Shown here piece after piece: positions 21,355 through 62,683 of a stretch of DNA of 64,000 bases. Position numbers and translations under genes: made by a program. The DNA comes from Parcubacteria group bacterium Gr01-1014_8. Its GTDB lineage: Bacteria > Patescibacteriota > Minisyncoccia > Phycocordibacterales > UBA2100. The notes beneath the pieces are model-generated. The model did not search any database. It saw only the letters and a program-made list of their open reading frames with translations, and was not told where the DNA came from. Location of the stretch: positions 96,001 to 160,000 of the forward strand of contig VMGC01000002.1 of the NCBI GenBank assembly GCA_007376385.1. Direction: 5' to 3'. Numbering within the stretch: position 1 is the first letter of the stretch; every line of letters starts with the position of its first letter.

Positions 21355-21358
21355 AGGT

Positions 21359-32587: not shown

Positions 32588-32596
32588 GAACCTCAG

Positions 32597-33952: not shown

Positions 33953-34013
33953 CCCGAACACACGAAGAGCACAGGCAACGAGCAATATGATGAGCACTAT
34001 GGACAAACACAGA

Positions 34014-34110: not shown

Positions 34111-34128
34111 CAGGCAAGCCGCGGGGTT

Positions 34129-36406: not shown

Positions 36407-38866
36407 ATGTCTAGCGTACGCGTGCTGAAATTCGGCGGTACTTCTGTTGGTTCGCCGGACGCGATACGGCACATCGTAAAAATAGTTCAACAACGCGGGA
36501 AAACCCGCATTGCCGCTATCGTTGTTTCTGCTTTTTCCGGCGTTACTGACGAACTCATCGCGATAGGCAAACTCGCGGCGAAAAAGGACCAGTCATATAA
36601 AGGGTTTCTCGCTGCGCTAGAAGCACGGCACATCGACGCTGTGAAGGAGCTCATCAGCCGAAAGAATCAGGATGCCTCCATTGCGCAGGTTAAAGTTTTG
36701 TTTAGATTCCTCGAGGGTGCGGTGCAGGGCGTGTCCCTTATTCACGAGTTATCGTCCGGCGCGCTGGACTACATTATGTGTTACGGAGAGCGCCTGTCTG
36801 CGCACATCGTTGCGGACGTACTGAGAGATAAAGGCATTCGTACGGAGTATTTGAATGCACGTAACATCATATTCACCGATGAGAATTTCGGTTCTGCATC
36901 AGTCGATTTTCCAGAGACGAATAAAGCGATAAACGCGTACTTTAAGAAGCATCATTCCGTGCAAGTTGTCACCGGTTTTATTGCCTCTACGCCGGATGGA
37001 AAGACGACGACGCTCGGGCGGGGAGGAAGCGACTATACGGCATCTATTCTAGGGGCAGCGCTTGACGTAGATGTCATCGAGATATGGACTGATGTGAGCG
37101 GTGTGATGACTGCAGATCCGCGTACAGTAAAAGAAGCGTTTCCCATCAAGGAAATGAGCTATACGGAAGCGATCGAGGTATCGTATTTCGGGGCAAAGGT
37201 CATTCATCCGCCGACGATGCAGCCGGCCAGAGAGAAGAATATCCCGATACTCATAAAAAATACGTTCGAACCGGAAGCGCCCGGCACCATCATTAGTTCG
37301 AAGTCAGCGGATAATGGCGCGCTTGCGAAAAGTATTACATCGATCGGAAATGTCGCGCTCTTGAGAGTGCAGGGAAACGACATGCCGAAAATTCGGGGCG
37401 TGCTTTCGCGCTTATTCGGCGCCCTTTCAAAGCACGCGATAAATGTCATTGTCATCACGCAAGCATCTTCGCAGCATTCCATCACGATTGCCGTCCTCGG
37501 CGCGGATGCGGATACCGCGCGAAAGGCGATAGACGAAGAGTTCGAACTCGAACGGCGGACCCACCGGATGGATAGGACGATAGTGGAAACGAAATTGGCA
37601 GTCATTGCACTCGTTGGCGAAGGTATGCGCAACAAGCCCGGAGTCGCGGGCAGGCTTTTCCAGACATTGGGACGCAACGGCATCAACATCGTCGCTCTCG
37701 CGCAAGGTTCTTCAGAATTGAATATTTCGTTCATTGTGCGCGAGAGCGACACGACGAAAGCCCTGAATGCTATCCACACGTCGTTCTTCTATCCGCGCCG
37801 GCGGGATATCAACGTCTTTCTAACAGGCACCGGTCTTATTGGAGGCATGCTCTTGCAACAACTTCTGAAACAGCAGGAATTTCTTGAACGTGAGCGCGGC
37901 GTTCGAATTCGCGTCGCCGGCATCGGAAACCAGCGCACGATGGATCTGGTACAGGACGGCATCTCGCTTTCAACGTGGAAAAAGGACCTCGTGTCTTCAA
38001 AGAAGCGCATGAATATTCGCGCGTTCATACACGAGATGAAGAAGATGGAGCTCCCGAACAAGGTGTTCGTGGATTGCACCGCGAGCGACGATATTGCAGC
38101 CGCATATGGAGACATATTAGCTTCCGGCATATGGGTAGTGACGCCGAACAAAAAAGCGAATTCGGGCACCTATAAGTATTATGAGGAATTACAGCAGTAC
38201 GCGGCATTTCCCGGCGTACAGTTCTTTTACGAGACGAATGTCGGCGCCGGATTGCCTATCGTCAACACGTTGAACGATCTCAGAGACAGCGGCGACAAAC
38301 TTCTTAAAGTGGAAGCCGTATTATCGGGGACACTGAGCTATATCTTCAATAATTTCGTAGAAGGAACGCGGTTCAGCGACATCGTGCGGCAGGCGAAGGA
38401 AAAAGGCTTCACGGAACCGGACCCACGGAACGACCTCTCCGGCGAAGATGTGGCGCGAAAGATACTCATTCTCGCGAGAGAAGCAGGATACAAGTTGGAA
38501 CTGAAAGATGTAGCCTTGAAGGGGCTTCTCGGAAAAAGATTCAGATCTGCCGATACTCCTAAAAAATTCTTTGCGCTTTTGGAAAAAGAAAATACCGCAT
38601 TCGAGAAAATTCGGGCGCATGCGGCAAAAAAAGGCCTTAGACTCCGATATATTGCACGCCTTGAAAAAGGACGTGCGAGCGTATCGCTCGAGGCAGTCCC
38701 GAGCACACATCCGTTCTATGAACTCGCAGAAAGTGATAACATTGTTTCATTCACGACAGAGCGATATAAACGCACCCCGCTCGTTGTGAAAGGTCCCGGC
38801 GCTGGTGCGGAAGTTACGGCGGGAGGCGTCCTCGCGGATATTTTACGGATAGGGATGACGATTTAA
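36407..38866 (+). CDS. thrA: bifunctional aspartokinase / homoserine dehydrogenase
   Basis: VLKFGGTSVGS...aspartokinase, two ACT-like segments, C-terminal HSD (GTGLIGG...). Confidence 0.9.
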   Translation: MSSVRVLKFGGTSVGSPDAIRHIVKIVQQRGKTRIAAIVVSAFSGVTDELIAIGKLAAKKDQSYKGFLAALEARHIDAVKELISRKNQDASIAQVKVLFRFLEGAVQGVSLIHELSSGALDYIMCYGERLSAHIVADVLRDKGIRTEYLNARNIIFTDENFGSASVDFPETNKAINAYFKKHHSVQVVTGFIASTPDGKTTTLGRGGSDYTASILGAALDVDVIEIWTDVSGVMTADPRTVKEAFPIKEMSYTEAIEVSYFGAKVIHPPTMQPAREKNIPILIKNTFEPEAPGTIISSKSADNGALAKSITSIGNVALLRVQGNDMPKIRGVLSRLFGALSKHAINVIVITQASSQHSITIAVLGADADTARKAIDEEFELERRTHRMDRTIVETKLAVIALVGEGMRNKPGVAGRLFQTLGRNGINIVALAQGSSELNISFIVRESDTTKALNAIHTSFFYPRRRDINVFLTGTGLIGGMLLQQLLKQQEFLERERGVRIRVAGIGNQRTMDLVQDGISLSTWKKDLVSSKKRMNIRAFIHEMKKMELPNKVFVDCTASDDIAAAYGDILASGIWVVTPNKKANSGTYKYYEELQQYAAFPGVQFFYETNVGAGLPIVNTLNDLRDSGDKLLKVEAVLSGTLSYIFNNFVEGTRFSDIVRQAKEKGFTEPDPRNDLSGEDVARKILILAREAGYKLELKDVALKGLLGKRFRSADTPKKFFALLEKENTAFEKIRAHAAKKGLRLRYIARLEKGRASVSLEAVPSTHPFYELAESDNIVSFTTERYKRTPLVVKGPGAGAEVTAGGVLADILRIGMTI

Positions 38867-38877
38867 CCACAGAAGCT

Positions 38878-39975
38878 ATGAATAAAAAGATCCCCGTAGG
38901 GATTTTGGGAGCGACAGGCATGGTCGGACAGCAGTACGTTCACCTGTTAGAGGATCATCCATGGTTCGAGGTGGCGTATGTTGCCGCGTCGCCGCAGTCG
39001 GCAGGACACACATACAAAGACGCCCTAAAGAATGGATGGCAAGTTCACGGCGACATCCCAAAGAACGTCGGGAGCATGGTCGTTGAAGATGTTGCAAGTA
39101 TCGAAAAGGCAGTAAAGAAATGTACACTTGTATTTTCGGCATTTGAAATGCCGGACAAGGACGCTATTCGAACATATGAAGAAGAATATGCAAAGGCAGG
39201 TATGCCCGTATTTTCTAATGCCTCCGCTCACCGTCACACCAACGACGTCCCTATGCTTATTCCAGAAATAAATGCACATCATTTGGCTATAATTCCCGCA
39301 CAGCAAAAAAAGCGCGGGTGGAAAAAGGGATTCATTGTTGTGAAGCCGAATTGCAGTTTGCAGAGCTACCTCGCGCCTATTGTTGCGCTGCAACATGGAG
39401 GATACGAAATATCTGATGTGCTCGTTACCACACTGCAAGCGGTTTCCGGCGCAGGATATCCGGGGGTTGCGTCGCTTGATGTCATTGACAATGTCATTCC
39501 GTTCATTCCGGGTGAGGAAGAAAAAACCGAAGTCGAGCCCATCAAGATCTTGGGACATATAAAAGGCGGCACATTCGCGAATTTTAAGGGAATCAATATT
39601 TCGGCGCAGTGCATGCGTGTACCGGTTTCCGACGGGCACATGGCGTGTGTAAGCGTCAAATTCAGAAGGCAGAGGCCAACCATAGAACAAGTTCGGAGCA
39701 CGTGGATAAATTTCAAGAGCGAGCCGCAAGAGTTGAAGCTTCCATTCGCGCCCGAACAACCGATCATCTATCGCGACGAGCCGAATCGCCCGCAGCCAAA
39801 GCGCGATCGCGACAACGGTAAAGGAATGGCTGTGACCGTTGGCCGTCTTCGTCCGTGCAGCGTCTTTGACTACAAATTCGTTGCCCTTAGCCACAATACT
39901 GTGCGAGGCGCGGCGGGAGGGGGCATTTTGAACGCGGAACTTGCGTATAAAAAAGGTTATCTACAGAATGTGTGA
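38878..39975 (+). CDS. asd: aspartate-semialdehyde dehydrogenase
   Basis: VGILGATGMVGQ NAD site; catalytic Cys in VKPNCSLQSYL. Confidence 0.9.
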   Translation: MNKKIPVGILGATGMVGQQYVHLLEDHPWFEVAYVAASPQSAGHTYKDALKNGWQVHGDIPKNVGSMVVEDVASIEKAVKKCTLVFSAFEMPDKDAIRTYEEEYAKAGMPVFSNASAHRHTNDVPMLIPEINAHHLAIIPAQQKKRGWKKGFIVVKPNCSLQSYLAPIVALQHGGYEISDVLVTTLQAVSGAGYPGVASLDVIDNVIPFIPGEEEKTEVEPIKILGHIKGGTFANFKGINISAQCMRVPVSDGHMACVSVKFRRQRPTIEQVRSTWINFKSEPQELKLPFAPEQPIIYRDEPNRPQPKRDRDNGKGMAVTVGRLRPCSVFDYKFVALSHNTVRGAAGGGILNAELAYKKGYLQNV

Positions 39976-40012
39976 GCCTGTGAATCATGGGAGTTGAGGT
40001 ATCATATCTACC

Positions 40013-41458
40013 GTGACCCCGGCTCCAGAGACGAACATTCCGACGATACTGGTGGCCCTCGGAGGTACTGGAGACTTAATGAGGCGGAAAGTGATACCCG
40101 CCTTTTTTTATCTCTACAAACAAGGGGCGCTTCCGGACAAATTTCGGCTCGTCGGTTTTTCGAGACGAGATATGACGGATGAGCAGTTCCGTGAATATGT
40201 AAAAGAGGTTATCGTGGCACACGCGGGGGAGCTCATTTTTCCCGAGATGATAGATTCTTTTTTGAAGCTTTTTAAGTTTCAAAAGGGAGAATTCAGCGAC
40301 AAAAAAAGTTACCGCGACCTTAAAAAGACGATTGATGAGTGCGATAAAGAGTGGGGCGTATGCTCAAATAAATTATTTTACCTGGCTGTTGCGCCGGAGT
40401 TTTACGAAACAATATTTAAAAACCTATCTGATTCGAAGTTGTCGGAGCCATGTGATGAAGATGGCGGCTGGACACGCCTTATCATTGAGAAGCCCTTCGG
40501 TGTTGATCTGAAGACGGCTAAAAGCATTGAGCGGCTCCTTACCAAGCTTTTTCTGCCGGAACAGATATATCGTATTGACCATTATCTGGCCAAAGAAATG
40601 TTACAGAATATTCTTACGTTCCGCTTCTCGAATAATTTATTCGAGAAACACTGGGGACGGGACTCAATAGAACGCATTTACATAAAATCGCTTGAGGAGA
40701 TAGGCGTTGAAAAGCGCGGTGCATTCTATGATCCGGTGGGCGCATTTCGCGACGTGGGCCAAAATCACTTTTTGGCGATGATGGCTCTGGTCACCATGGA
40801 ACATCCGATAAGTTTCGATGCAAAGGCGATCCAAAGGAAACGAGCGGATGTGCTAAAGAAATTGAAAATTATCAAAAAAAACGAAATACCGAAAGCCACA
40901 TTTCGTGCGCAGCACGAGGGCTACAGAACCATCGCTGGTGTTGCGAAAAATTCCGCGACGGAAACATACTTCAAAATAAAAGCGGAAGTTGCAACGAAGC
41001 GATGGAAGGGAGTACCGATAATTCTTGAAGGCGGCAAGCGATTGGGGGCGCCAGAGAAGGAAGTCATCATTACCTTCAAGCATCCAAAACAGTGTCTTTG
41101 CCCGAAAGACGGACCACATCACAAGAATGAGATAATCATCCGTTTTGAACCCAGGGAAGAGATTCTCATCGAATTCTGGTCCAAAAAACCCGGCTTCACG
41201 ATGGATACTGCGCCGCGCATGCTCCACTATATTCTAAGGGAACCAAAAGCGCATATTCCGTACATCGAGGAATACGCGAAGCTCCTTTTGGATTGCATTC
41301 GTGGGGATCAGATGCTGTTCGTCTCCACGTCCGAGATACAGGCGATGTGGCGCTTCACCGATCCCATCCTTGACGCATGGAAGAAGGGTTTGGTACCGTT
41401 GCATTCGTACAAACCGGATACAAAAGAAATACTACAAACATCTAACTATATACAATAG
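40013..41458 (+). CDS. zwf: glucose-6-phosphate 1-dehydrogenase
   Basis: ILVALGGTGDLMRRKV...IEKPFG...YRIDHYLAKEM. Confidence 0.9.
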   Translation: MTPAPETNIPTILVALGGTGDLMRRKVIPAFFYLYKQGALPDKFRLVGFSRRDMTDEQFREYVKEVIVAHAGELIFPEMIDSFLKLFKFQKGEFSDKKSYRDLKKTIDECDKEWGVCSNKLFYLAVAPEFYETIFKNLSDSKLSEPCDEDGGWTRLIIEKPFGVDLKTAKSIERLLTKLFLPEQIYRIDHYLAKEMLQNILTFRFSNNLFEKHWGRDSIERIYIKSLEEIGVEKRGAFYDPVGAFRDVGQNHFLAMMALVTMEHPISFDAKAIQRKRADVLKKLKIIKKNEIPKATFRAQHEGYRTIAGVAKNSATETYFKIKAEVATKRWKGVPIILEGGKRLGAPEKEVIITFKHPKQCLCPKDGPHHKNEIIIRFEPREEILIEFWSKKPGFTMDTAPRMLHYILREPKAHIPYIEEYAKLLLDCIRGDQMLFVSTSEIQAMWRFTDPILDAWKKGLVPLHSYKPDTKEILQTSNYIQ

Positions 41459-41460
41459 AT

Positions 41461-42450
41461 ATGCAAAAAGAGATAGGAATGATCGGACTTGGAAAAATGG
41501 GAGGGAACATGGCGCGACAGCTCGTGGAAAAAGGATGGAATGTGCACGGTATGGATGCGGACCCTGCGACAACACAAAAACTCGGAAAGGAGGGTATACA
41601 AGGAGCGTACTCGATACACGAACTTGTCTCGAAACTGAAAGCCCCGCGTGTGGTATGGCTCATGGTACCCGCAGGGAAACCGGAAGACGATCTGCTGTTT
41701 GGCAATGACCGACATCATGACCGACATCGTAAGTCGAACACATTGACCGACTTACGATATCGGTCACGGTCATCCGTAAAAGATGCGGGGCTTGTACGTT
41801 TACTTTCACGGGGCGACGTTATCATTGATGGGGGTAATTCTTATTACAAAGATTCAATATCGCGCGCGAAGAAAGTCGCAACATTCGGCATCAAATTCAT
41901 TGACGTTGGATTTTCTGGCGGCCCCGCGGGGGCTCGAAACGGAGGCTGTCTCATGATCGGCGGGGATGAAAGCTCGTTCAAGCGGCTCGAACCGTTGTTC
42001 AAAGACCTTGCGCGCGACAATGGGTATCAATTCTTCAAAGGTGTTGGAGCGGGCCATTTTGTAAAGATGGTCCACAACGGCATCGAATACGGCATGATGC
42101 AGGCGTTGGGGGAAGGTTTTGCGATGTTAAAAAAGACACCGTTCAAACTGGATCTCACGCGTGTTGCGGATATATACAATAATGGAAGCGTTATCGAGTC
42201 GCGCTTGGTAGGATGGATGAAGAAAGCGTTTCAAGAACATGGAGAAGACTTGAAGCAGGTCTCAGGTTCGGTTGGGCACACTGGCGAGGGCGAATGGACG
42301 GCAAAGACTGCGCGAGAAATGAAAATTCCGGCAAAAATAATTGGGGAATCGTACAAGTTTCGCGTTCAGTCAAAGAAAAAGCCGTCGTTTACCGGCAAAG
42401 TCGTGTCCGCATTGCGTGGACAGTTCGGAGGACATAATATTAAAGAGTAA
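41461..42450 (+). CDS. gnd: 6-phosphogluconate dehydrogenase (short YqeC-like form) carrying an in-frame insertion
   Basis: IGMIGLGKMGGNMA...VWLMVPAG...GDVIIDGGNS...HNGIEYG. About 23 extra residues between PAG and GD are encoded by a repeat-rich segment. Confidence 0.8.
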   Translation: MQKEIGMIGLGKMGGNMARQLVEKGWNVHGMDADPATTQKLGKEGIQGAYSIHELVSKLKAPRVVWLMVPAGKPEDDLLFGNDRHHDRHRKSNTLTDLRYRSRSSVKDAGLVRLLSRGDVIIDGGNSYYKDSISRAKKVATFGIKFIDVGFSGGPAGARNGGCLMIGGDESSFKRLEPLFKDLARDNGYQFFKGVGAGHFVKMVHNGIEYGMMQALGEGFAMLKKTPFKLDLTRVADIYNNGSVIESRLVGWMKKAFQEHGEDLKQVSGSVGHTGEGEWTAKTAREMKIPAKIIGESYKFRVQSKKKPSFTGKVVSALRGQFGGHNIKE

Positions 42451-42452
42451 CT

Positions 42453-43400
42453 ATGAACAGAAACCTAGCGCTTGAATTTGTGCGAGTGACCGAGGCTGCG
42501 GCATACGCTGCAGCGAAGTGGGTCGGGAAAGGCGACAAAATTGCTGCGGATGGTGCGGCGGTAGACGCGATGCGAGAGCGTTTCAACGAGATAGAGTTCA
42601 GCGGGACCATCGTCATTGGCGAGGGAAGCAAGGACGAGGCGCCAGAATTATATACAGGCGAAAAAGTAGGGAAAGGCAAAGGGCCGGTGATGGACCTTGC
42701 GGTGGACCCATTGGAGTGCACCGACAGCGTTGCCTTTGGACGCTTCAATGCTCTAAGCGTTATTTCAGCAGGAGCTAAGGGAAGCCTTCTTTCAGCGCCT
42801 GATACCTATATGGAAAAGATCGCTGCAGGCCCCGGCGCGGGTAAAGTAATCGATATAGATGCACCTGTCGCAACAAATATTAAAAAGGTGGCAAAGGCGC
42901 TCGGGAAGGATGTCGGGGAGATCACCGTGGTGATTTTAGACAGGGACAGGCATATCGAACTCATCAATGATGTTCGGAAGGCAGGAGCGCGTGTTCGATT
43001 GATAACAGATGGAGATGTGGCAGGAGGTATTGCGCCGTGCATGCCAGAGAGCGGCATTGACCTATTGATGGGCATTGGCGCTTCCGCCGAGGCGGTGCTC
43101 GCGGCGACTGCGATAAAGATTATGGGGGGAGAGCTTCTCTGCCGGTTCAAACCAAAAGACGAGAAACATGCGAAATTGGTTTCGGATCACGGGCACACCA
43201 CGAAGAGGATATTCAAGACGAGCGACCTCGCCAAGGGGAACGAGCTAACGTTCACCGCGACCGGTGTTATTGACGGGCCGCTTCTCCAAGGAGTGAGGAT
43301 TCTAAGGGACATCGCGATAACACATTCCCTCGTCATACAGGGCGTCTCGGGGACACTTCGCTACATAACGACCCATCACAAACTCCCTGCGTATAAATAG
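42453..43400 (+). CDS. glpX: fructose-1,6-bisphosphatase class II
   Basis: N-terminal and central GlpX family motifs (LALEFVRVTEAAA..., DPLECTD). Confidence 0.9.
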   Translation: MNRNLALEFVRVTEAAAYAAAKWVGKGDKIAADGAAVDAMRERFNEIEFSGTIVIGEGSKDEAPELYTGEKVGKGKGPVMDLAVDPLECTDSVAFGRFNALSVISAGAKGSLLSAPDTYMEKIAAGPGAGKVIDIDAPVATNIKKVAKALGKDVGEITVVILDRDRHIELINDVRKAGARVRLITDGDVAGGIAPCMPESGIDLLMGIGASAEAVLAATAIKIMGGELLCRFKPKDEKHAKLVSDHGHTTKRIFKTSDLAKGNELTFTATGVIDGPLLQGVRILRDIAITHSLVIQGVSGTLRYITTHHKLPAYK

Positions 43401-43449
43401 ATCTGCTACACTGCAAAAGTGACACTAATTATTTTATTAATATATCTTT

Positions 43450-44445
43450 ATGTCTTTACAATCAATCGCAAAGCAGATGGTCGCAAAGGGAAAGGGCATC
43501 CTCGCAGCGGACGAAAGTTCGGGAACGATAGAGAGGAAGTTTGCGAAAGTCGGACTGACTTCGACAGAAGATAATCGGCGGGCGTATCGCGGAATGCTTT
43601 TTACCTCGCCAGGTATTGGAAACTATATTTCGGGAGCCATCCTTTTTGATGAAACGATAAAGCAAAAGGCGCCCGACGGCCGCACAATGGTCTCCATTCT
43701 GGAAGCGGAAGGAATCCTGCCGGGCATAAAAGTCGACCAAGGTACGAAGGATATGGAGGGTTCGCCGGGCGAGAAGATCACCAAAGGGCTCGACGGACTT
43801 GGCGAACGTCTAAAAGAATATGCAACGTTGGGAGCAAAATTTGCGAAGTGGAGATCGGTCATTACGATAGGAAACGGTATCCCGACCGATGCAAACATCA
43901 AACAGCAAACAAAAGATTTGGCTGCGTACGCGCTGGAGTGCCAGAAAGCCGGCATTGTTCCGATGGTTGAGCCGGAAGTACTCATGGATGGCGGCCACAC
44001 GATTGAAAGATGTGTTGAGGCAAGTGAAAAGACGCTCACTGCACTTTTTGAAGAGCTGAAGGCAGCAGGGGTAGATATATCGGGGACTATTCTCAAGACG
44101 AACATGATGGTTCCCGGCAAGGAGAGCGGTACGAGGGCAACACCAGAACAAGTGGCGGATGCGACTGTCGCCGTATTCAAGAAAGTTCTTCCAAATGATC
44201 TGCCAGGTCAGGCATTCCTATCTGGCGGGCAGGAAGATGTGGAAGCGACAGAGAATTTGAATGCCATCAACAAAAAGGGACCTTTCCCCTGGAATCTTTC
44301 ATTCTCATATGGCCGCGCACTTCAAGATTCGGCGCTCAAGGCATGGAACGGAAAATCAGAAAATATCATCGCTGCGCAACAGGTGTTTCTCAAGCGGGCA
44401 AAAATGAATTCACTTGCGACGGAAGGCAAATATAAAGGAGAGTAG
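43450..44445 (+). CDS. fba: fructose-bisphosphate aldolase class I
   Basis: GKGILAADESSGTIEKRF...GAILFDET; Schiff-base Lys region. Confidence 0.9.
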   Translation: MSLQSIAKQMVAKGKGILAADESSGTIERKFAKVGLTSTEDNRRAYRGMLFTSPGIGNYISGAILFDETIKQKAPDGRTMVSILEAEGILPGIKVDQGTKDMEGSPGEKITKGLDGLGERLKEYATLGAKFAKWRSVITIGNGIPTDANIKQQTKDLAAYALECQKAGIVPMVEPEVLMDGGHTIERCVEASEKTLTALFEELKAAGVDISGTILKTNMMVPGKESGTRATPEQVADATVAVFKKVLPNDLPGQAFLSGGQEDVEATENLNAINKKGPFPWNLSFSYGRALQDSALKAWNGKSENIIAAQQVFLKRAKMNSLATEGKYKGE

Positions 44446-44534
44446 TCGCATTTGAAACCTAATTTTTCAGCAATATCGCATGATACCTTAGGTGTGCCGA
44501 CCGGCACACCTAAGGTATTCAGGTTTTTGGCGGA

Positions 44535-45182
44535 CTACAATAAAGAATGCCCGTGAAGGACGATAGGAAGAATATCTTCGATTGTGTACACGATGTGGTC
44601 CGGTTCGTACGCGACGAGATCAGCGTGGGGTCCGTATGAAATACCAATAGTCCCGACACCGGCGGCTTTTCCCGCTTGGATGTCGACTGGCGTATCGCCG
44701 ACAAACCACGCGTCTTTCGCCTCTACATCTACCGCTCGGAGGGCTGCAGACACGTGTTCCGGGTCTGGCTTGGCTCGAGTGACATCATCTTGAGACAGCA
44801 AGGCATCAAACATGCTCACTATTTTTACGTGTTGCATGGTGGCGATGGACGATTTTCTCATACGATTTGTCACTGTTGCCAGCTTGATGCCCTTGTCTTT
44901 AAGCGTCTGCAGCGTTTCTTTTACGTTTGGAAATATCATTACTAACTGAAGATTTTTTTCTTGAAAATCGCGATGCGCTTGCATAAGCCGCAGGGCATCT
45001 TTTTCCGGGAACAGCATTTCATAGTTCTCTCTCAGCGTTTTACCCTGGCTTGCGAGAAGCACTGCAGTTGCCCGTGAAATAGGCGCTCCTTCTTCAGTGG
45101 TAACATGCTCGTAAGCACGAATAATGTACTCGTACGTATCAAGCAGAGTCCCATCGACATCAAAAAGTACTGCTTTTGTCAC
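44535..45182 (-). CDS. HAD-superfamily hydrolase (phosphatase)
   Basis: LFDVDGTLLDT motif I; later motifs present. Confidence 0.75.
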   Translation of the reverse strand: MTKAVLFDVDGTLLDTYEYIIRAYEHVTTEEGAPISRATAVLLASQGKTLRENYEMLFPEKDALRLMQAHRDFQEKNLQLVMIFPNVKETLQTLKDKGIKLATVTNRMRKSSIATMQHVKIVSMFDALLSQDDVTRAKPDPEHVSAALRAVDVEAKDAWFVGDTPVDIQAGKAAGVGTIGISYGPHADLVAYEPDHIVYTIEDILPIVLHGHSLL

Positions 45183-45296
45183 TGGAAGATTATACCTAAC
45201 TTCAGGAGAACTCGTATTTCTCTCACTTTGACAGGAGTCATATATCTCCGTATGATGTTTTTTTCGCCCCTATAATAAGGCACACTTCCTAGGCAC

Positions 45297-47522
45297 ATGA
45301 GGCATATATTCTTAATCGTGCTTGCTGTCGCTTTTGCTGTATCTCTTGCAGCTTCAGTTTTTACGTTGATGCAAGTGAACAAAGAGACAGATGAGTTGTC
45401 GAAGAAGCTCAGGGAGAGGACGCTGCTTCTTGCGGATGGTCTTGCAGAGTCCGCGGCTCCTGCGTACGCGCGATATGCCACGAGTACGCTGGAAAAGTTG
45501 GCGAACACCTTTACGAATCGCGAGCGTCTCATCGGCCTTGCATTTTATGACACGCGCGGTAATAAAATTGCCGGTTCGAGCGGCGTCACAGATGAAATGC
45601 TGAAAAATGCGCCGATTCTCGATACATTCAATAGCACCGAGCCTGACGACGCTTTTGCAATTACCGAAGGGACGAGAAAATATTATTTCGCGCAACCACT
45701 CCACTCTGACGATGCCTATATTGGCTCGCTTGTACTTGTGCAGGATGCCAGTGATATCGATGTGGCAATGAGCAGGATATGGCGAGACACATTTCTGAAA
45801 CTTTTCGTATATTTTCTCCTTTTTGCCGTCGCCATCGCAGCCCTTGTCTACTTTGTGCTTTTCAAACCGCTATCGAATTTAGCTGAATCTATCCGCCAGG
45901 CGCGAATGAATAAAGATGCGCGTGCTCCTCAACCCTCGCACCACAATTTTTTTCTGCAACCTCTTGCGATGGAAGTCTCGAAACTTGCGTCTTCACTCGC
46001 GCAGGCACGAACTGCTGCAAGCGAAGAGGCGCGTATGCGCCTTGAAAAGATTGACACCCCTTGGACGGAGGAGAGGCTAAAGGAATTCATAAAGGCGTAT
46101 CTCAAGGATAGGCCTATCTATGTCGTTTCGAATCGAGAGCCCTACATACACTCCAAGGATCGCGGAGAGGTCACCTACTCGGTGCCTGCGAGCGGCATGG
46201 TGACAGCGCTTGAGTCTGTCATGGCGGCCTGCGGAGGGGAATGGCTCGCTCATGGCAGCGGAAATGCTGACAAAGAAATGGTCGATGCGGAGAGCAAGAT
46301 CCGTGTCCCACCAGATGAGCCGAAATATACCTTGAAGCGTATTTGGCTGAATCCAAAAGAGGTCAAGGGCTATTATGTCGGTTTCTCGAACGAGGCTCTG
46401 TGGCCGCTGTGTCATATAGCGCATACGAGGCCGACCTTCAGAAAGGAAGACTGGCTGATGTACAAGCGCGTGAACGGCAAGTTTGCTGAGGCGCTTCTTG
46501 CGGAATTAAAAGGCGTCGAGCGCCCCATAGTGTTGATACAAGATTTTCATCTTTCTCTTTTGCCGCGGATGATAAAGGAGTCGCGTCCGGACGCACAGGT
46601 CGGTCTTTTTTGGCACATACCCTGGCCGTCCGCAGAAGGCTTCAGTATCTGTCCTTGGAGAAAAGAGATACTGCAGGGAATGCTCGGCGCGGATATAATC
46701 GGTTTTCATACGCAGCAGTTCTGCAATAATTTCCTCGAAACTGTCGGAAAAGAGATCGAATCGCTTATCGATCTGGAGCAATTTGCTGTTACGAGCGATG
46801 AGCACACATCATTCATCAAGCCATTTCCTATAAGTATTTCGTTCACTGACGCAATGGAGGGAAAGACGTCGATAGCGCCTGATCGCGCTGCTCTTGAAGC
46901 GATGGACATTCGAACAGAGTTCGTCGGACTTGGCGTGGACAGGCTCGACTATACGAAGGGAATTCTTGAGCGATTCAGAGGGATCGAATTTTTTCTTGAC
47001 GCTCATCCGGATTTTTATAAACGATTTACGTTCTTGCAGGTCGCACCTCCGAGCCGCGAGGAATCGGAAAAGTATCGGGATTATGCAGTTGCCGTCGAGG
47101 CAGAAGCAGCCCGAGTGAATGCAAAATTCAGAAAGAATGGATGGCAGCCCATTCGTTTTGAAAAAAGGCATTTTTCGCACTCGGAACTTGTGCCGCTCTA
47201 CCAAACAGCGAACTTTTGTCTTGTGACATCTCTGCACGACGGCATGAACTTGGTCGCCAAAGAATACGTGGCAGCAAGAGATGATGAAGCAGGAGCCCTC
47301 ATCTTGAGCAAATTCACCGGCGCTTCTCGCGATTTCAATCGCGGTGCGCTTATCGTCAATCCCTATAGCGCCGAAGAGGTCTCGGAAGCTATCCACCGTG
47401 CTCTCGTCATGCCCGCCACTGAGCAGCATCGTAGAATGAGATCCATGCGAACATCAATACGAGACTACAATGTGTATCGCTGGGCGGCTGAATTTATAAA
47501 AGCAGTTGCAGCGCTCCGATAA
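45297..47522 (+). CDS. otsA: trehalose-6-phosphate synthase-like glycosyltransferase (GT20) fused to an N-terminal two-TM sensor-like domain
   Basis: C-terminal 480 aa match the OtsA core (PIYVVSNREPY...WHIPWPS...DIIGFHT...). N-terminal 250 aa have TM1 - ~150-aa extracytoplasmic domain - TM2 - coiled linker. Confidence 0.75.
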   Translation: MRHIFLIVLAVAFAVSLAASVFTLMQVNKETDELSKKLRERTLLLADGLAESAAPAYARYATSTLEKLANTFTNRERLIGLAFYDTRGNKIAGSSGVTDEMLKNAPILDTFNSTEPDDAFAITEGTRKYYFAQPLHSDDAYIGSLVLVQDASDIDVAMSRIWRDTFLKLFVYFLLFAVAIAALVYFVLFKPLSNLAESIRQARMNKDARAPQPSHHNFFLQPLAMEVSKLASSLAQARTAASEEARMRLEKIDTPWTEERLKEFIKAYLKDRPIYVVSNREPYIHSKDRGEVTYSVPASGMVTALESVMAACGGEWLAHGSGNADKEMVDAESKIRVPPDEPKYTLKRIWLNPKEVKGYYVGFSNEALWPLCHIAHTRPTFRKEDWLMYKRVNGKFAEALLAELKGVERPIVLIQDFHLSLLPRMIKESRPDAQVGLFWHIPWPSAEGFSICPWRKEILQGMLGADIIGFHTQQFCNNFLETVGKEIESLIDLEQFAVTSDEHTSFIKPFPISISFTDAMEGKTSIAPDRAALEAMDIRTEFVGLGVDRLDYTKGILERFRGIEFFLDAHPDFYKRFTFLQVAPPSREESEKYRDYAVAVEAEAARVNAKFRKNGWQPIRFEKRHFSHSELVPLYQTANFCLVTSLHDGMNLVAKEYVAARDDEAGALILSKFTGASRDFNRGALIVNPYSAEEVSEAIHRALVMPATEQHRRMRSMRTSIRDYNVYRWAAEFIKAVAALR

Positions 47523-48808: not shown

Positions 48809-49243
48809 ATGGAAGACAGGCCCTTTGTCGGTATTGGCGTAACGATACTTAAAGATGGAAAAATTCTCCTCGGCAAAAGAGTATCAACGTATGGGACCGG
48901 AGAATATCAAACGCCTGGCGGACATCTTGAGCCTAAAGAAGCTTTTGAGGCATGTGCGCGGCGAGAAACCTTGGAGGAGTGCGGACTCGAAATAGGCTCA
49001 ATCCGTTTTCAATTTGTAGCAAATGCCGTAGGGTATGGTCTCGTGCATTACGTTCATATTGGTTTGATAACGGAATGGAAGGCAGGTGAACCTAAAAATC
49101 TTGAACCTACAAAATGCGAAGGATGGGATTGGTACTCTCTTGACGCATTGCCGGAGCCTCTTTTTGTATACACGAAATGGTCTATAGAGGCACATCAAAC
49201 AGGACTCAATTATTTCGATAGTGAGGCCCGACCAGCGAAATAA
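48809..49243 (+). CDS. NUDIX hydrolase
   Basis: Nudix box G.LEPKEAFEACARRETLEECGL. Confidence 0.75.
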   Translation: MEDRPFVGIGVTILKDGKILLGKRVSTYGTGEYQTPGGHLEPKEAFEACARRETLEECGLEIGSIRFQFVANAVGYGLVHYVHIGLITEWKAGEPKNLEPTKCEGWDWYSLDALPEPLFVYTKWSIEAHQTGLNYFDSEARPAK

Positions 49244-49244
49244 A

Positions 49245-49375
49245 GGTTCCTCGGAGCTTGCTCCGAGGTATTATGGAGCTCGCTTCGCTCGCGCAGTCTC
49301 GCAGCAGAGCTGCGAGGTATTGAACCTGTGTTTGCTCCTCGGCACGGAAATGCAACAGAGTACTTTTGCATTTCT
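49245..49375 (+). repeat. hairpin-rich intergenic repeat element (related copy, opposite orientation, at 62619-62683)
   Basis: CCTCGGAGC-TTG-GCTCCGAGG 9-bp palindrome plus about 60 nt shared with the 62.6-kb copy; a 48-nt extra segment bounded by the 7-nt direct repeat GAGGTAT; trailing 9-bp hairpin GAAATGCAA/TTGCATTTC. Confidence 0.5.
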
Positions 49376-49447
49376 CTCGCAATGCTCGCAAATAAAATGT
49401 GAAGGCATCTTGACTCGATTTCGTGCACGGGTAGAGTATGGGGGTTC

Positions 49448-55403: not shown

Positions 55404-56675
55404 ATGAAAACAGATAATACGTATAAAAAGATCTCATCATATGAGATAGAGCCTGGCGACGTTGATACCGTGCTTCTCCTCTATTCAGGGGGACTTGATA
55501 CGTCGGTGATGTTGAAATGGATACAAGACCACTACAAAGCAGATCTTGTGACTCTTACCCTGGATATCGGCCAGCAAAAGGACGATCTTGAAGCGATACG
55601 AAAGAAAGCACTGCGCCTGGGCGCAAAAAAGGCGATTGTTCTCGATGCGAAAAAAGAATTTGCAGATGAATTTATCGCTAAAGGGATCAAGGCGAATGCG
55701 TCGTATCAGGGCGAGTATCATCTTTCAACTCCTATCGGCAGAGCCGTAACCGCAAAAAAGGGTGTGGAAGTCGCAAAGAAATTGGGGATTACGTGCATTG
55801 CGCATGGGTGCACCGGAAAAGGCAACGATCAAGTCCGGTTTGAAGGATACATCTTAGCCCACGACCCGAATATGAAGGTCATTGCACCGGTCAGAGAGTG
55901 GAACATGGATAGGAACGAGGAGATAGAATACGCGCGAAAAAATAATATCCCTGTCCCGGCCAAAAAAGATTTTCCTTACTCCGTGGATGACAACATGTGG
56001 GGCATGACATGGGAAGGCGGAGAAGTCGAAGATCCTGCATCAGTGCCGAAAGTCGAGAAATTCCTTACCACGTACACATTGCCTGAAAAGGCGCCAAGCA
56101 CTCCGGAAAAGATAACGCTTGCCTTCAAGAATGGTTTGCCGACAAAACTGAACGGCAAGGCCATGCGCTTGTCAGACCTCATCATTAAACTCAATTCCAT
56201 CGGAGGCAGGCACGGTGTCGGAATTGCGTACATGATCGAGGACAGAATGGTCGGCGTGAAAGACAGGGGCGTCTATGAGCAGCCGGGCGGGCACCTGATT
56301 ATCGAGGCCCACAAAGCACTTGAAAGGTACGTATCAACACGCGACTTGAACGAACTCAAGTCGTCGCTCGACATCAAGTGGGGGTACCTTTGCTATGGCG
56401 CAAAATGGTATGACCCTTCCATGGATGCTATCAACGCGTTCAATGATTCGGTGAATGAAAAAGTTGAAGGCACAGTGACCTTAAAGTTACATAAGGGTTC
56501 CGTAACCGTTATCGCACTCACCTCGCCGTTCGGTCTAAAACACGCGTCGTTCAACAACACAGAAGGGTACAACTTCAATGTGAATGCGAGTGCAGGCTTC
56601 ACGGAAATATATACATTGCAAATGAAGATCGCTAATGACTTGGCAAGAAAACATGCAAGTAAGAAAAAGAAGTAG
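55404..56675 (+). CDS. argG: argininosuccinate synthase
   Basis: LLYSGGLDTSVMLKW N-terminal PP-loop and full-length match to the family. Confidence 0.95.
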   Translation: MKTDNTYKKISSYEIEPGDVDTVLLLYSGGLDTSVMLKWIQDHYKADLVTLTLDIGQQKDDLEAIRKKALRLGAKKAIVLDAKKEFADEFIAKGIKANASYQGEYHLSTPIGRAVTAKKGVEVAKKLGITCIAHGCTGKGNDQVRFEGYILAHDPNMKVIAPVREWNMDRNEEIEYARKNNIPVPAKKDFPYSVDDNMWGMTWEGGEVEDPASVPKVEKFLTTYTLPEKAPSTPEKITLAFKNGLPTKLNGKAMRLSDLIIKLNSIGGRHGVGIAYMIEDRMVGVKDRGVYEQPGGHLIIEAHKALERYVSTRDLNELKSSLDIKWGYLCYGAKWYDPSMDAINAFNDSVNEKVEGTVTLKLHKGSVTVIALTSPFGLKHASFNNTEGYNFNVNASAGFTEIYTLQMKIANDLARKHASKKKK

Positions 56676-56677
56676 GT

Positions 56678-57967
56678 ATGGCAAAGTTATGGCAAAAATC
56701 CGGTAAAAAACTGCATCCACTTGTAGAGAAATATACTGTCGCAACCGACGATGTATTCGATGTGCTGTTGATGCCGTTCGATATCACGGTGTGCAAGACG
56801 CATGCAAAAGGATTGAAACAGATAGGCATTTTGACAGCGAGGGAGCTTAAAAGTCTGCTTGATGCACTCGCTCAACTCGAGCAAGATTGCAAAGAAGGCG
56901 CAGTGCGGATCACGAAAGCGGACGAAGACAGCCATACAGTCATTGAGAATTATCTTGTGAAGAAGCTCGGCGCCGTGGGGAAGAAGATCCATACAGGACG
57001 GAGCCGGAACGAAGTTATTGTCGCAATGCGGTTGTATATGAAGGATGCGCTTGGTCAGTCGAGAAAGCAGTGTCTCCATCTTGCAAGGGAATTTCTTGAC
57101 ATGGCGGATGAACACAAAAACATTCCTATGGCAGGATATTCGCACACGCAGCAGGCGATGCTTTCAAGTATCGGTCATTATTTTTCCGCTTTTGCGGAAA
57201 GTATGTTGGATGATTCAGACGTGCTTCATCTCGCGAAAATGCACCTCGATAAAAGTCCGCTTGGTTCGGCTGCCGGATTCGGTGTTTCTTTGCCGCTTGA
57301 TCGCGTCTATACGGCAAAAGAGCTAGGCTTTGGCAGTATCCAGATAAATTCACTGTATTGCCAAAACTCGCGCGGCAAGTTCGAGAGCCTGTACATGGAA
57401 GCTCTGGCGCAGGTCATGCTTACATTGGGAAGATTTGCAAACGATATGCTGCTCTTTACCTCGCAGGAATTCGATTTTTTCTTGATAGATGACTCGCTTG
57501 TGACAGGCTCAAGCATCATGCCGCATAAGCGAAATCTAGATGCCATGGAAATACTGCGAGGAAATGTGAGCGTGGTCATTGCAAATCAGCTCATGGTAAA
57601 AGATATCGCAAAAAACTTGCTATCCGGATACAACCGGGACGGACAGCTCATGAAAAAACCGATCTTTGAGTCAACACAGATAGTCTTGGACTCACTAAAG
57701 ATCGTAGAGCTCATATTGAAGGGGCTTACCCCAAAGACGGATCGTATCATCGCCAATATCCGCATGGGTATCTTTACCGCGGATATTGCGAATGACCTGG
57801 TTTCAAAAAAGGGTGTCCCATTTCGAGACGCGTATAGACAAGCTGCAGATACAGATGTCGGAAACATAAACCTCATGGCGAACATCGCCTCAAAAAAGAG
57901 CCTAGGTGCTCCAGGCAATCTTGGATTGAAACTGCTTCGAAAGCGAGTTAGTAAGTTATCGATATGA
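56678..57967 (+). CDS. argH: argininosuccinate lyase
   Basis: GSSIMPHKRNLDAMEILRG lyase-1 signature. Confidence 0.95.
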   Translation: MAKLWQKSGKKLHPLVEKYTVATDDVFDVLLMPFDITVCKTHAKGLKQIGILTARELKSLLDALAQLEQDCKEGAVRITKADEDSHTVIENYLVKKLGAVGKKIHTGRSRNEVIVAMRLYMKDALGQSRKQCLHLAREFLDMADEHKNIPMAGYSHTQQAMLSSIGHYFSAFAESMLDDSDVLHLAKMHLDKSPLGSAAGFGVSLPLDRVYTAKELGFGSIQINSLYCQNSRGKFESLYMEALAQVMLTLGRFANDMLLFTSQEFDFFLIDDSLVTGSSIMPHKRNLDAMEILRGNVSVVIANQLMVKDIAKNLLSGYNRDGQLMKKPIFESTQIVLDSLKIVELILKGLTPKTDRIIANIRMGIFTADIANDLVSKKGVPFRDAYRQAADTDVGNINLMANIASKKSLGAPGNLGLKLLRKRVSKLSI

Positions 57968-58890
57968 AGCACGTACTTTCAATTGCAGATCTAACATCCA
58001 AGGAAATTACAGAAATACTGAACCTCGCAAAGAAATTGAAGTCAGAGTTGAAGAAAAAGGGAGCAAATTCACCTCTGTTCAAGAATAAAACACTGGTCAT
58101 GATCTTCGAGAAGCCAAGTCTTCGTACACGGCTTTCGTTCGAGATAGGTATGACACAGCTGGGCGGGCATGCTGTCTATCTGGCTCCGAGCGATATCGGG
58201 CTAGGAAAACGCGAATCGATCGCCGATGCGTCGAAAGTCATATCTCGGATGGGTGACATCATCATGGCGCGTGTATTTTCGCATGAGAACGTGAGGGAAA
58301 TGGCCGCGCACTCCTCTGTGCCTGTGATAAACGCACTGTCTGACCTTGAACATCCATGCCAATCTCTCGCGGACGTAATGACGATGTGGGAACACAAGCG
58401 TTACCTCAAGGGGCTGAAAGTCGCATTCATCGGGGATGGTGAGAACAACGTCACGCACTCGCTGGCGCTCATCTCGGGGCTTCTTGGGATGCATTTTGTA
58501 ACCGCATCGCCCAAAGGGTATTGGATGAACAAGGGCATCGTTGCTCAGGCAAAAAAGTTTGCAGCAAAAAGTGGAGGTTCTATTTCTGAAACCACCAAGC
58601 CTGAAGTCGCAGCCAAAAATGCAGATGTGGTCTACACGGATACATGGGTGAGCATGGGAGACGAGGCAGGAAAGGAACAAAGACTTAAGATCTTTCGCCC
58701 ATATCGAGTGACTAAAAGGCTTATGAGTCTGGCAAAGAAGGATGCCCTCTTTATGCACGACCTCCCCGCGTACCGTGACAATGAAGTTGAGGCGGACGTT
58801 ATCGATGGTCCGAAGTCAGTTGTGTTCCAACAAGCGGAAAATAGGTTGCACGTCCAAAAGGCTATACTAGTGCGTTCATTGCAGAAATGA
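57964..58890 (+). CDS. argF: ornithine carbamoyltransferase
   Basis: SLRTRLSFE carbamoyl-P motif and HDLPAYRDNEV (HCLP-type ornithine site). Confidence 0.85.
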   Translation: MKHVLSIADLTSKEITEILNLAKKLKSELKKKGANSPLFKNKTLVMIFEKPSLRTRLSFEIGMTQLGGHAVYLAPSDIGLGKRESIADASKVISRMGDIIMARVFSHENVREMAAHSSVPVINALSDLEHPCQSLADVMTMWEHKRYLKGLKVAFIGDGENNVTHSLALISGLLGMHFVTASPKGYWMNKGIVAQAKKFAAKSGGSISETTKPEVAAKNADVVYTDTWVSMGDEAGKEQRLKIFRPYRVTKRLMSLAKKDALFMHDLPAYRDNEVEADVIDGPKSVVFQQAENRLHVQKAILVRSLQK

Positions 58891-61390: not shown

Positions 61391-61921
61391 ATGCGTCCTG
61401 ATACTATGGTTGTAGAAAAATACAGAGACGTCATGAAGCTTCCGCACGATATAGAAGCCGAGCTGGACGGTGCGCCTCTGTTTGAAAATTTGGAAGCTGC
61501 AATGGGGACACTTGAGCTCGAGCATAAACGCCGTCGCAACCTTTTAGAGCACGCTGGGAAGGCAGAACGTCTCAACTACCCTGATAAGGCAACTGCGATA
61601 AAAGCAGCGATAATGAATGGAAGGTCAGCAGCAAAAGAAACAGCTGCGTGGGAGGATTTTACGCAGTCGAATCCTTCTGCAGAACAGGCGGCAATAGTTC
61701 TAGCGCACGTCTCTCATTTTAGGTCCGCGAAACCGACGCTGCTCGATATGGCAATTGATTTCTTTCTTCTTCGTATTCAGGAGGTTACTGATGCGAAAAA
61801 ATCAAGAGAGATAGTGGCTCTCGCTGCAAATGCCATTCGCAGCAGGCATCTGGACGATCCCGAAAAAAAAGGATATTTACGGAGACTGCAACTCTTAAAT
61901 GGAGTGGGCGAGGAAAAATGA
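61391..61921 (+). CDS. hypothetical protein
   Basis: 176-aa ORF; its stop overlaps the ATG that opens repeat copy B. Confidence 0.4.
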   Translation: MRPDTMVVEKYRDVMKLPHDIEAELDGAPLFENLEAAMGTLELEHKRRRNLLEHAGKAERLNYPDKATAIKAAIMNGRSAAKETAAWEDFTQSNPSAEQAAIVLAHVSHFRSAKPTLLDMAIDFFLLRIQEVTDAKKSREIVALAANAIRSRHLDDPEKKGYLRRLQLLNGVGEEK

Positions 61922-62014
61922 AAGGTTTCAACCCCCAAGGCAAGCCCTGGACTCTGGAAAACGAGCACCGCTCGTTTCCCAAATTCCGCGGCCTGTCTGC
62001 GTGCATCGCACAGG
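61918..62014 (+). repeat. copy B of the ~97-nt direct repeat
   Basis: Aligned to 34014-34110 with 4 mismatches. Confidence 0.6.
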
Positions 62015-62058
62015 TACACATATATCGGCGGCATTCACCGTGGTACACTGGCACTCCC

Positions 62059-62610: not shown

Positions 62611-62618
62611 AATTACTC

Positions 62619-62683
62619 CTGCTTTATTTCCGAGCCGAGGAGCAAACACAGGTTCAATACCTCGGAGCTTGCTCCGAAGAACC
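62619..62683 (-). repeat. second copy of the hairpin-rich repeat element (reverse-complement orientation relative to 49245)
   Basis: GCCGAGGAGCAAACACAGGTTCAATACCTCGGAGCTTGCTCCGA. Confidence 0.5.

Follow-up and report, generated by a model that had tools for sequence, protein, structure and literature searches.

The window analysed here, a stretch of 64,000 nucleotides (nt) from the assembly of Parcubacteria group bacterium Gr01-1014_8 (contig VMGC01000002.1), carries at the 3' end of a NUDIX gene a hairpin-rich intergenic sequence near 49 kb, which had been noticed in an earlier reading of the same DNA (the original prediction) together with a reverse-complement copy at 62.6 kb and a supposed fragment at 18.2 kb. 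These sequences are copies of one repeat, and such repeats apparently constitute a large, undescribed family scattered in Parcubacteria-group genomes of the candidate phyla radiation.

Copies in the window and their anatomy

A covariance model (CM) built from 50 family members and run on the window with filters off returned exactly four copies and nothing else above noise. A sensitive self-comparison of the window revealed a unit of ~82 nt common to four sites, which starts AGGTAT, contains CTCCTCGGC(A/T)CGGAA, continues into a hairpin and then reads CTCGC..CGTCGC.AATAAA; the stem of this hairpin differs in sequence among the four window copies, with the pairing kept. The minimal unit of the family is a core of ~86 nt, comprising a closing helix of 5-7 bp (P1), two pyrimidine-rich segments and a 12-bp hairpin (P2), and its consensus consists of (A)ATAAAGGTATTGAACCTGTATTAGCTCCTCGGCTCGGAA, the hairpin and TTCTCTCGCTCTACGTCGCTAATAAA. 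Between the 5' end and the core there are 0, 1 or 2 GC-rich hairpin modules (A, B), each of which ends GAGGTATT. Copies of class I (10, including the 21-kb copy) consist of the core only and measure 84-93 nt; class II copies (13, plus the deleted 62-kb copy) carry module A and the core in 106-118 nt; and those of class III (~27, including the 49-kb copy) combine modules A and B with the core in 152-167 nt. The copies in the window and the parts of copy 1 are located as follows.

49239-49397, plus strand: copy 1, class III, module A + module B + core, 159 nt; CM core hit at 49313-49397 (+), 86.8 bits, full core
49245-49272, plus strand: module A of copy 1, GGTT + hairpin CCTCGGAGC/GCTCCGAGG (49249-49268) + TATT
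49273-49321, plus strand: module B of copy 1, 49 nt, GGAGCTCGCTTCGCTCG box + hairpin TCTCGCAGC-AGA-GCTGCGAGG + TATT
49315-49327, plus strand: P0 mini-hairpin in the core of copy 1, AGG-TATTGAA-CCT
49329-49335, plus strand: 5' arm of P1 in copy 1, TGTTTGC, paired with 49388-49394 (GCAAATA) by RNAalifold
49336-49346, plus strand: 5' conserved single-stranded segment of copy 1, TCCTCGGC(A/T)CG
49347-49374, plus strand: P2 hairpin of copy 1, GAAATGCAA...TTGCATTTC
49375-49387, plus strand: 3' conserved single-stranded segment of copy 1, TCTCGCAATGCTC; family consensus TCTCGCTCTACGTC
62623-62689, minus strand: copy 2, module A + core, P2 and 3' segment deleted (...CTCGGCTC runs directly into GGAAATAAAG); CM hit at 62622-62664 (-), 39.5 bits, with an internal deletion, 43 model positions
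21350-21436, plus strand: copy 3, class I, core only, P2 at 21387-21414, 3' AATAAA at 21431-21436; CM core hit at 21353-21437 (+), 72.7 bits
18140-18228, minus strand: copy 4, core with a degenerate 5' part, P2 at 18165-18188; CM core hit at 18139-18228 (-), 64.9 bits

A repeat finder recovered the 49-kb and 62-kb sequences as reverse-complement copies of one element, as had been proposed: 49308-49358 matches 62619-62669 in inverted orientation over 51 nt (90% identity), and 49240-49272 matches 62656-62688, also inverted, over 33 nt (91% identity). The 28-mer GGTATTGAACCTGTGTTTGCTCCTCGGC occurs exactly twice in the window, at 49316-49343 (+) and 62634-62661 (-), whereas the expectation from 100 dinucleotide-preserving shuffles is 0. 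A GC-rich palindrome, CCTCGGAGCTTGCTCCGAGG, is located at 49249-49268 and, with one mismatch, at 62660-62679; it is present in both copies, as originally described, but the exact string had been given with one G too many. It comprises 9+2+9 nt, in effect a stem of 8 bp closed by a CTTG loop; in the 62-kb copy, a G.T pair at one position of the stem renders it imperfect, contrary to the description. The extra segment reported for the 49-kb copy exists and is flanked by a direct repeat; however, it spans 49 nt (49273-49321) rather than 48 nt, and the repeat is the 8-nt GAGGTATT at 49265-49272 and 49314-49321 rather than the 7-nt GAGGTAT. Both hairpins described at this site, i.e., CTCGCAGC-AGA-GCTGCGAG in the extra segment and GAAATGCAA...TTGCATTTC at 49347-49374, were found as predicted. 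The extra segment is no chance insertion: it is a conserved optional module, module B, carried by ~27 of 67 copies and found at the same place in loci L020, L031, L044, L062, L074, L088, L090, L091 and L112.

The 5' AATAAA of copy 1 (49239-49244) includes the NUDIX stop codon TAA (49241-49243), and its 3' AATAAA(A) is located at 49391-49397. Copy 2 is bracketed by GATAAA (62689-62684) and AATAAA (62628-62623) and holds the TGA (62656-62654) that is the stop of a minus-strand open reading frame (ORF), 62654-63262, the last ten codons of which (KGSSEQAPRY) are element sequence. As to the placement of the copies directly after stop codons, as first described, the NUDIX TAA forms the first bases of the element, and the stop of the 62-kb ORF lies inside the copy. 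The reading frames encoding GSSE(L/Q)APRY are indeed present in both copies. The product of the 62-kb ORF, TSC86571.1 (annotated 202 aa), has no homologue among 5.8 billion proteins, and this annotation, with its ten C-terminal residues encoded by the repeat, may not represent a real gene. The 5' end of copy 3 is AATGAA, the TGA of which (21352-21354) is the stop of a cupin gene (20959-21354; Pfam); this copy had been overlooked. Copy 4 is antisense to dus (17126-18160), spanning its last six codons and TGA; the Dus and DnaX genes near it were assigned by Pfam matches. It is related to the others, as had been stated, but is no fragment, since it scores 64.9 bits as a full-length core. A promoter-like GGGGTATA box at 18250-18228 (-) points into this copy. 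Two window copies are located on each strand, though nearly all genes are on the plus strand, and an additional copy lies 7 kb beyond the window, antisense between two genes and beside a separate canonical terminator.

Folding with inspection of covariation among copies, which the original prediction had suggested, revealed compensatory pairing. The helices were assessed by RNAalifold and by explicit pair counting. P0 is paired in 95% of the cells and is essentially invariant in sequence, and thus provides no covariation evidence. The family majority of P1 is TATTAGC/GCTAATA, with three pairs displaying double-sided changes; its variants include TTGGC/GCCAA, TTTAC/GTAAA, TGTTTGC/GCAAATA (that of the window) and, in a divergent subfamily, CTGTC/GACAG. 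P2 has a conserved GAA/TTC base, the remaining stem being free in sequence, and 9 of its 12 pairs change on both sides. Taken over the helices, 92.4% of the cells are paired, as compared with 78.3% in column shuffles and 40-54% with slid partners, and 138 double-sided changes were counted against 35 expected from shuffles, with none of 500 shuffles as high. The stems of modules A and B also covary, that of module A across 37 distinct members (CCTCGGGGC/GCCCCGAGG, CCCCGGAGC/GCTCCGGGG, CCTCGCGGC/GCCGCGAGG). The two segments between the helices, TCCTCGGCTCG and TCTCGCTCTACGTC, are almost invariant and pyrimidine-rich and do not pair with each other; every column of the 5' single-stranded segment is invariant or at least 90% conserved among 50 sequences. 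The secondary structure of the element is under selection. In a rare variant, a block of 80 nt is inserted within the 3' segment, 96% identical at two unrelated loci.

Family, ends and genomic context

The search pattern AGGTATN{14,18}CCTCGGCWCGGAA, derived from features common to the four window copies, is degenerate and retrieved 103 metagenome loci, ~70 of which hold the complete conserved unit; on the retrieved loci, the CM gave 76 hits at E<=0.001. The two copies initially recognised are therefore clearly not the only ones. The loci stem from at least 25 sequencing projects, which cover groundwater, sediment and other habitats, and the hosts include Parcubacteria group bacterium Gr01-1014_8, i.e., the metagenome-assembled genome (MAG) of the window, and a Ca. 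Magasanikiibacteriota MAG, also of the Parcubacteria group, in which a contig of 283 kb bears three copies in its first 57 kb. At the gathering threshold, Rfam 15 returned only 3 tRNAs from the window, and it yielded no match to the element either in 16 element-bearing loci (E<=1) or in the 49-kb copy (E<=10). Plasmid and phage collections gave no match to the element; among viral contigs, a single pattern match was found, which is attributed to chance and was not confirmed by the CM. In the full-text literature searched, no earlier account of such repeats was found for these bacteria. In a separate search of species-representative genomes, the exact 20-mer GGTATTGAACCTGTGTTTGC (49316-49335) matched only ribonucleotide reductase genes of unrelated phyla (L001-L010), in bacteria and archaea; these matches arise because the 20-mer spells GIEPVFA codons, and they were set aside as coincidence rather than homology.

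Among 51 non-redundant copies, the 5' boundary reads AATAAA (A in 39, A in 47, T in 51 and A in 51 at each of the last three positions) followed by GG, and the 3' boundary reads AATAAA(A), while the sequence outside both is unconserved. The two AATAAA motifs are always co-oriented with the element, and such a fixed sequence and orientation is atypical for a target-site duplication. In the tandem dimer of L041, one TA(A/G)A is common to both units. Terminal inverted repeats are absent, as the 5' AATAAAGGTATTGAACC and the 3' CGTCGCTAATAAA are not complementary; P1, an internal helix ~25 nt from the 5' end, provides the only long-range pairing.

In 17 of the 67 copies, an upstream ORF terminates in frame at the TAA within the 5' AATAAAGG, and in 14 of these 17 that ORF is at least 100 codons long. 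A co-oriented gene end is located within 60 nt of the 5' side in 30 of 67; for those 30 copies, chance predicts ~0.25 exact coincidences with the stop. Several other ORFs stop inside the element, either at the TGA/TAA of GGTATT(G/A)A or at a stop in the module A loop. On the 3' side, convergent gene ends lie within 80 nt in 24 copies and co-directional gene starts follow in 25, and both orientations of the element occur between co-directional genes. In a Magasanikbacteria contig (L066, 2978-5045, minus strand), the repeat occupies the exact gap that separates the ATPase gene of an ABC transporter operon from the permease gene, with the 5' TAA of the repeat as the stop and the next start codon 8 nt past its 3' AATAAA; in L017, the element likewise fills the exact stop-to-start spacer in an operon. 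No protein family recurs within 2.5 kb of the element, which is thus neither tied to a gene class nor accompanied by an enzyme of its own, and across all ORFs of the element-bearing loci the recurring genes are housekeeping genes only. One copy, in L052 (178-1573), is located ~200 nt from the 3' part of a 23S rRNA gene that is split by a group I intron and followed by 5S rRNA.

A second pair of repeats in the window, 34013-34110 and 61917-62014, is 96% identical over 98 nt and represents a divergent subfamily (D1 type) of the same superfamily. The subfamily starts with AATGAAAGGTTTCAACC, where the main family starts with AATAAAGGTATTGAACC, and its GC-rich hairpins are similar to those of the main family. 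Its two copies in the window are:

34013-34153, plus strand: D1-type copy, AATGAAAGGTTTCAACC + three hairpins + first ~30 nt core-like (GGGGTTTTGAACCTTTGCTGTCTGTGTCGCT), then truncated
61917-62014, plus strand: second D1-type copy, 5' modules only in this assembly

The 34-kb copy runs into the core-like GGGGTTTTGAACCTTTGCTGTC.., and the TGA of the ORF at 61391-61921 is located within the AATGAAAGG start of the 61917-62014 copy. An independent assembly of the same strain, the ENA contig L122, is 100% identical to window positions 62015-64000 and contains 125 additional nt at 62014/62015, which form a complete subfamily core ending GATAAAG (44 bits); the end of L122, which continues into the full core, matches positions 34070-34153 with 100% identity. 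This 125-nt difference reflects either a genuine insertion/deletion polymorphism or a collapse in assembly. Contigs from independent assemblies of this strain terminate within the 49-kb copy or at both D1-type copies.

Mobility and competing explanations

The element is lineage-restricted, and its positions are lineage-specific. Four relatives that bear NUDIX homologues, one of them a Parcubacteria-group MAG with the Gr01-1014 prefix, hold 0 copies in 83 kb (<=65% identical, not syntenic), and 0 copies were found in 47 kb of Magasanikbacteria with a TypA 87-94% identical to that of a copy-rich contig (not syntenic at the ABC-transporter junction). Three element-bearing contigs (L020, L027 and L103) are partly syntenic with the window around dus. 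The dus-dnaX spacer of L020 contains a small ORF, a terminator-like hairpin and a dnaX promoter box, with no element, and is too diverged for a clean junction; in L027 and L103, the element is located upstream of dus, in opposite orientations. Near-identical composite copies are present at unrelated loci, namely L052/L070, L037/L109 and L103/L114 (96% over 175 nt). The interpretation favoured here, which we consider probable though far from secure, is that of a mobile DNA repeat of the BOX/ERIC/bcr1 kind which is non-autonomous, modular and target-specific and exists in multiple copies in some Parcubacteria-group genomes. The suggestion of a repeat family with an insertion/deletion polymorphism, likened to miniature inverted-repeat transposable elements (MITEs) or REP sequences, holds for a family far larger than first supposed; the family consists neither of classical MITEs nor of REP sequences.

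Under such a mobile-repeat interpretation, a putative trans-acting, structure-recognising recombinase or transposase encoded elsewhere would read the conserved loops and the hairpin, and this putative enzyme would insert the element at AATAAA in one orientation only. It is proposed that tolerated sites concentrate at gene ends because AATAAA contains TAA, such that insertions would survive mainly where the TAA can be, or adjoin, a stop codon; since insertion at AATAAA would favour gene ends, the element would often carry or replace the upstream stop and sometimes donate the last codons. The inserted element would be passively co-transcribed in either orientation, and any effects on mRNA 3' ends would be secondary.

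Several observations weigh against mobility. No clean empty site, i.e., filled and empty alleles with a single AATAAA, was found among the relatives compared, and no candidate transposase, recombinase or autonomous parent was seen in 473 kb of element-bearing loci. The difference at 62014/62015 could be an assembly artefact. Furthermore, the single-stranded segments are near-invariant across distant hosts, and each window copy possesses a different, compensated P2, a combination that also fits selection for a function in situ. The evidence on the folding strand, finally, conflicts between helices: the G.U pairs count in favour of the upstream-gene strand in P0, P1 and module A (26 vs 7), whereas in P2 the A.C mismatches (~19) exceed the G.U pairs (~10), which favours the opposite strand. 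The module loops are mostly CAAG, corresponding to a stable CUUG loop on the opposite strand, and the GCTTCGC of module B is GCGAAGC there, two loop motifs that likewise point to this strand; the opposite strand is the more stably folded in 55 of 65 copies, a figure probably inflated by purine/pyrimidine skew. The same skew probably confounds G.U/A.C counts and folding energies as a strand test in general.

A rival explanation is a domesticated cis-acting RNA of the 3' untranslated region, in which hairpins on the upstream-gene strand would stop transcription or block 3'-to-5' exonucleases and the pyrimidine-rich loops would be a putative protein-binding site, e.g., for a Rho-like or RNase-type factor. 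This explanation, which we regard as rather unlikely, draws on the ~30 of 67 copies within 60 nt of a co-oriented gene end, 17 of them exactly at the stop, on the conserved structure with its compensatory changes, on the unpaired segments almost invariant across lineages, on the G.U pairs of P0, P1 and module A and on the operons in which the exact stop-to-start spacer is filled (L066 and L017). However, no U-tract follows any hairpin on the upstream-gene strand, and about as many copies are antisense or outside transcription units, such as copy 4 and the L122 copy beyond a canonical terminator; homologous genes of relatives lack the element, no gene class is associated with it, and internally deleted and truncated copies persist. 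The intrinsic-terminator role assigned to the copies in the original prediction lacks support, given the missing hairpin with a U-tract on that strand, the occurrence of both orientations with respect to transcription and the one copy located beside a separate canonical terminator. A terminator scan made no call on the upstream-gene strand at the 49, 21 and 18 kb copies, its single call being module A on the opposite strand, with the tail AACCTTTATT.

That opposite strand is the one invoked by a further explanation, in which the element is a single-stranded DNA transposon remnant (PATE) mobilised in trans by an IS200/IS605-type Y1 (HUH) transposase and inserting 3' of TTTAT opposite the upstream gene. 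The lack of terminal inverted repeats, the fixed, non-palindromic and co-oriented flanking penta-/hexanucleotide and the subterminal hairpins conserved in shape rather than sequence are in line with it, as are the greater number of G.T pairs in opposite-strand P2 and the loops CTTG and GCGAAGC; AATAAA/TTTATT at both ends is compatible as well, though it also fits a sequence-specific duplication. On the opposite strand, TTTAT precedes P2 on its 5' side by ~18-19 nt and follows module A on its 3' side at a distance of ~9-10 nt, a spacing that may resemble the geometry of IS608 ends. We nevertheless consider a PATE improbable: P2 (AT-rich, variable) and module A (GC-rich) show no sequence relationship, in contrast to the hairpins at IS200/IS605 ends, class I copies lack the second hairpin altogether, neither a TnpA nor a TnpB gene was seen in any element-bearing locus, and the four window copies are split evenly between the strands, although the genes of the window lie almost exclusively on the plus strand. 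We regard it as very unlikely that the family consists of small trans-acting RNA genes, each with its own promoter. The 18-kb copy is preceded on its own strand by the promoter-like TATCTCACGGGGTATA, which otherwise precedes genes in this genome but here has no ORF downstream; however, the sequences upstream of other copies are unrelated and mostly coding up to the stop codon, there is no conserved terminator, and copy number and position vary between relatives. Chance similarity or assembly artefact, to which the codon coincidence of one element 20-mer with ribonucleotide reductase might lend colour, is practically refuted already by the 0 matches expected from shuffles, by identical sequence in NCBI, ENA and Logan assemblies and by dozens of homologous copies in independent metagenomes.

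Other assignments were tried and rejected. The opposite-strand GGTTCAATACC resembles a T-loop, but the loop measures 6-8 nt across the family and ARAGORN reported no tRNA; a coding reading of the GSSE(L/Q)APRY and GIEPVFA frames fails on family indels that are not multiples of three, and a riboswitch or gene-specific leader on the lack of gene association. An integron attC site would require R''/R' core sites (RYYYAAC ... GTTRRRY), which are not found at the ends, and an overall imperfect palindrome, whereas here the two conserved segments show no pairing with one another. As for a bridge RNA or omega RNA, here it is the loops that are conserved and the stems that vary, and no recombinase or TnpB gene is located nearby.

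With respect to the mobile-repeat interpretation itself, a bolder version is tentatively entertained, although we hold it to be improbable: the invariant loops and the hairpin conserved in shape only would be the recognition site of a novel enzyme or ribonucleoprotein, the element being the non-autonomous partner of a new transposition or recombination class, or else they would belong to a functional structured RNA, protein-binding or catalytic, that copies itself to stop codons. Such a new class could be defined by the lack of inverted repeats, strictly oriented insertion, the AATAAA target and restriction to the candidate phyla radiation.

Significance, further features and known repeats

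Genomes of the candidate phyla radiation measure ~1 Mb and are regarded as streamlined; despite this, some of them carry a repeat of 86-167 nt at intervals of 10-60 kb. Copies of the repeat are points at which metagenome assemblies break, and the family creates false ORFs and protein C-termini in annotation, as exemplified by the orphan TSC86571.1 and the last six Dus codons, and a CM such as the present one could join RNA and repeat libraries for masking or annotating these regions. As a sequence tag, the repeat also allows recent genome dynamics to be traced in uncultured Parcubacteria, possibly including horizontal transfer, and its invariant loops offer a starting point for identifying the enzyme or protein by which it is recognised, which would be the first mechanistic entry to the mobile DNA of the group.

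Several further features were recorded in the window and in other loci. The motif TATCTCAYGGGGTATAMT occurs, as inverted pairs, in intergenic regions between divergent genes and also immediately before start codons, and is probably a promoter (-10 region) with very short leaders in these bacteria; its minus-strand instance at 18.2 kb has only an element copy downstream, and in a relative a GGGGTATACT box precedes dnaX (L020, 1300-1325, minus strand). Two related 37-nt near-perfect palindromes of the TACCATAATGGTGCCGGTCGGCACCATTATGGTA type at gene ends could act as terminators in both directions or belong to a further family of small repeats. L081, a short contig that also bears a repeat copy, gave two hits to the type III hammerhead ribozyme (45.8 and 41.2 bits), below the gathering score of 48.5. 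The metabolism of the window MAG is unusually rich for the Parcubacteria group. The positions of these features are:

7540-7557, 7627-7655, 14200-14228, 14260-14275, 18228-18250, 18316-18335, 32595-32612 and 32683-32705, window: TATCTCAYGGGGTATAMT sites
9177-9213 and 44484-44520, window: 37-nt near-perfect palindromes
452-506 and 1356-1410, L081: type III hammerhead ribozyme hits
36407-47522 and 55404-58890, window: genes for aspartokinase-homoserine dehydrogenase, glucose-6-phosphate and 6-phosphogluconate dehydrogenases, FBPase, aldolase, trehalose-6-phosphate synthase and argininosuccinate/ornithine carbamoyltransferase

Among known repeats, the closest analogues of the family are those of the bcr1 type, the modular BOX and ERIC being close as well, with no sequence homology to any of them. 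In bcr1, one of the BCR repeats found in the Bacillus cereus group, mobility is reported to be associated with repetitions of a fixed TTTAT motif (PMC6542083); the ATAAA on either side of the present element has TTTAT as its reverse complement. Both families consist of structured interspersed repeats of roughly 100-400 bp, with tens of copies per genome, lineage restriction and no linked transposase. However, the host phylum differs, and the likeness is drawn by description only; a distant-mode BLAST of the consensus against plasmids, including B. cereus plasmids, gave no match.

BOX of Streptococcus pneumoniae and ERIC/IRU of enterobacteria are intergenic, often co-transcribed, modular hairpin-rich repeats, the mobilisation mechanism of which is not known. 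They vary in the number of middle modules or carry extra blocks at fixed internal sites, features that the present family shares. However, BOX and ERIC are overall imperfect palindromes with pairing ends and have no fixed hexanucleotide flanks, whereas the core described here is closed by a helix of 5-7 bp only, with the 5' ~25 nt outside it.

Classical MITEs, such as Correia of Neisseria and the IS630/Tc1-derived elements, have terminal inverted repeats and insert in either orientation. The present family resembles them in its small size, many copies, short direct repeats at the ends, gene-end insertion and contig breaks; it has the AATAAA direct repeat at both ends (51 copies), a length of 84-167 nt, many copies and a non-coding nature in common with MITEs. 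It differs in the absence of terminal inverted repeats and in a flanking repeat that is always co-oriented. REP/BIME/REPIN sequences, which are mobilised by RAYT, are single palindromes of 20-40 nt with a conserved GTAG head, usually in inverted pairs. REP and the present family are alike as extragenic hairpins at gene 3' ends in many copies, but the unit described here measures 84-167 nt with conserved unpaired segments, and its copies are single or in direct tandem. MIRU of mycobacteria are tandem minisatellite units in intercistronic positions, the ends of which overlap flanking stop and start codons; this overlap is common to both, while the hairpin-and-loop architecture is found only in the present family. 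IS200/IS605 ends and PATEs likewise lack terminal inverted repeats, insert in an oriented manner at a short T-rich target and possess subterminal hairpins; here, however, the two hairpins are dissimilar, and many copies have one only. The repeat is accordingly filed as a new family within the loosely defined structured non-autonomous interspersed repeats, a class in which members are grouped by description rather than by homology.

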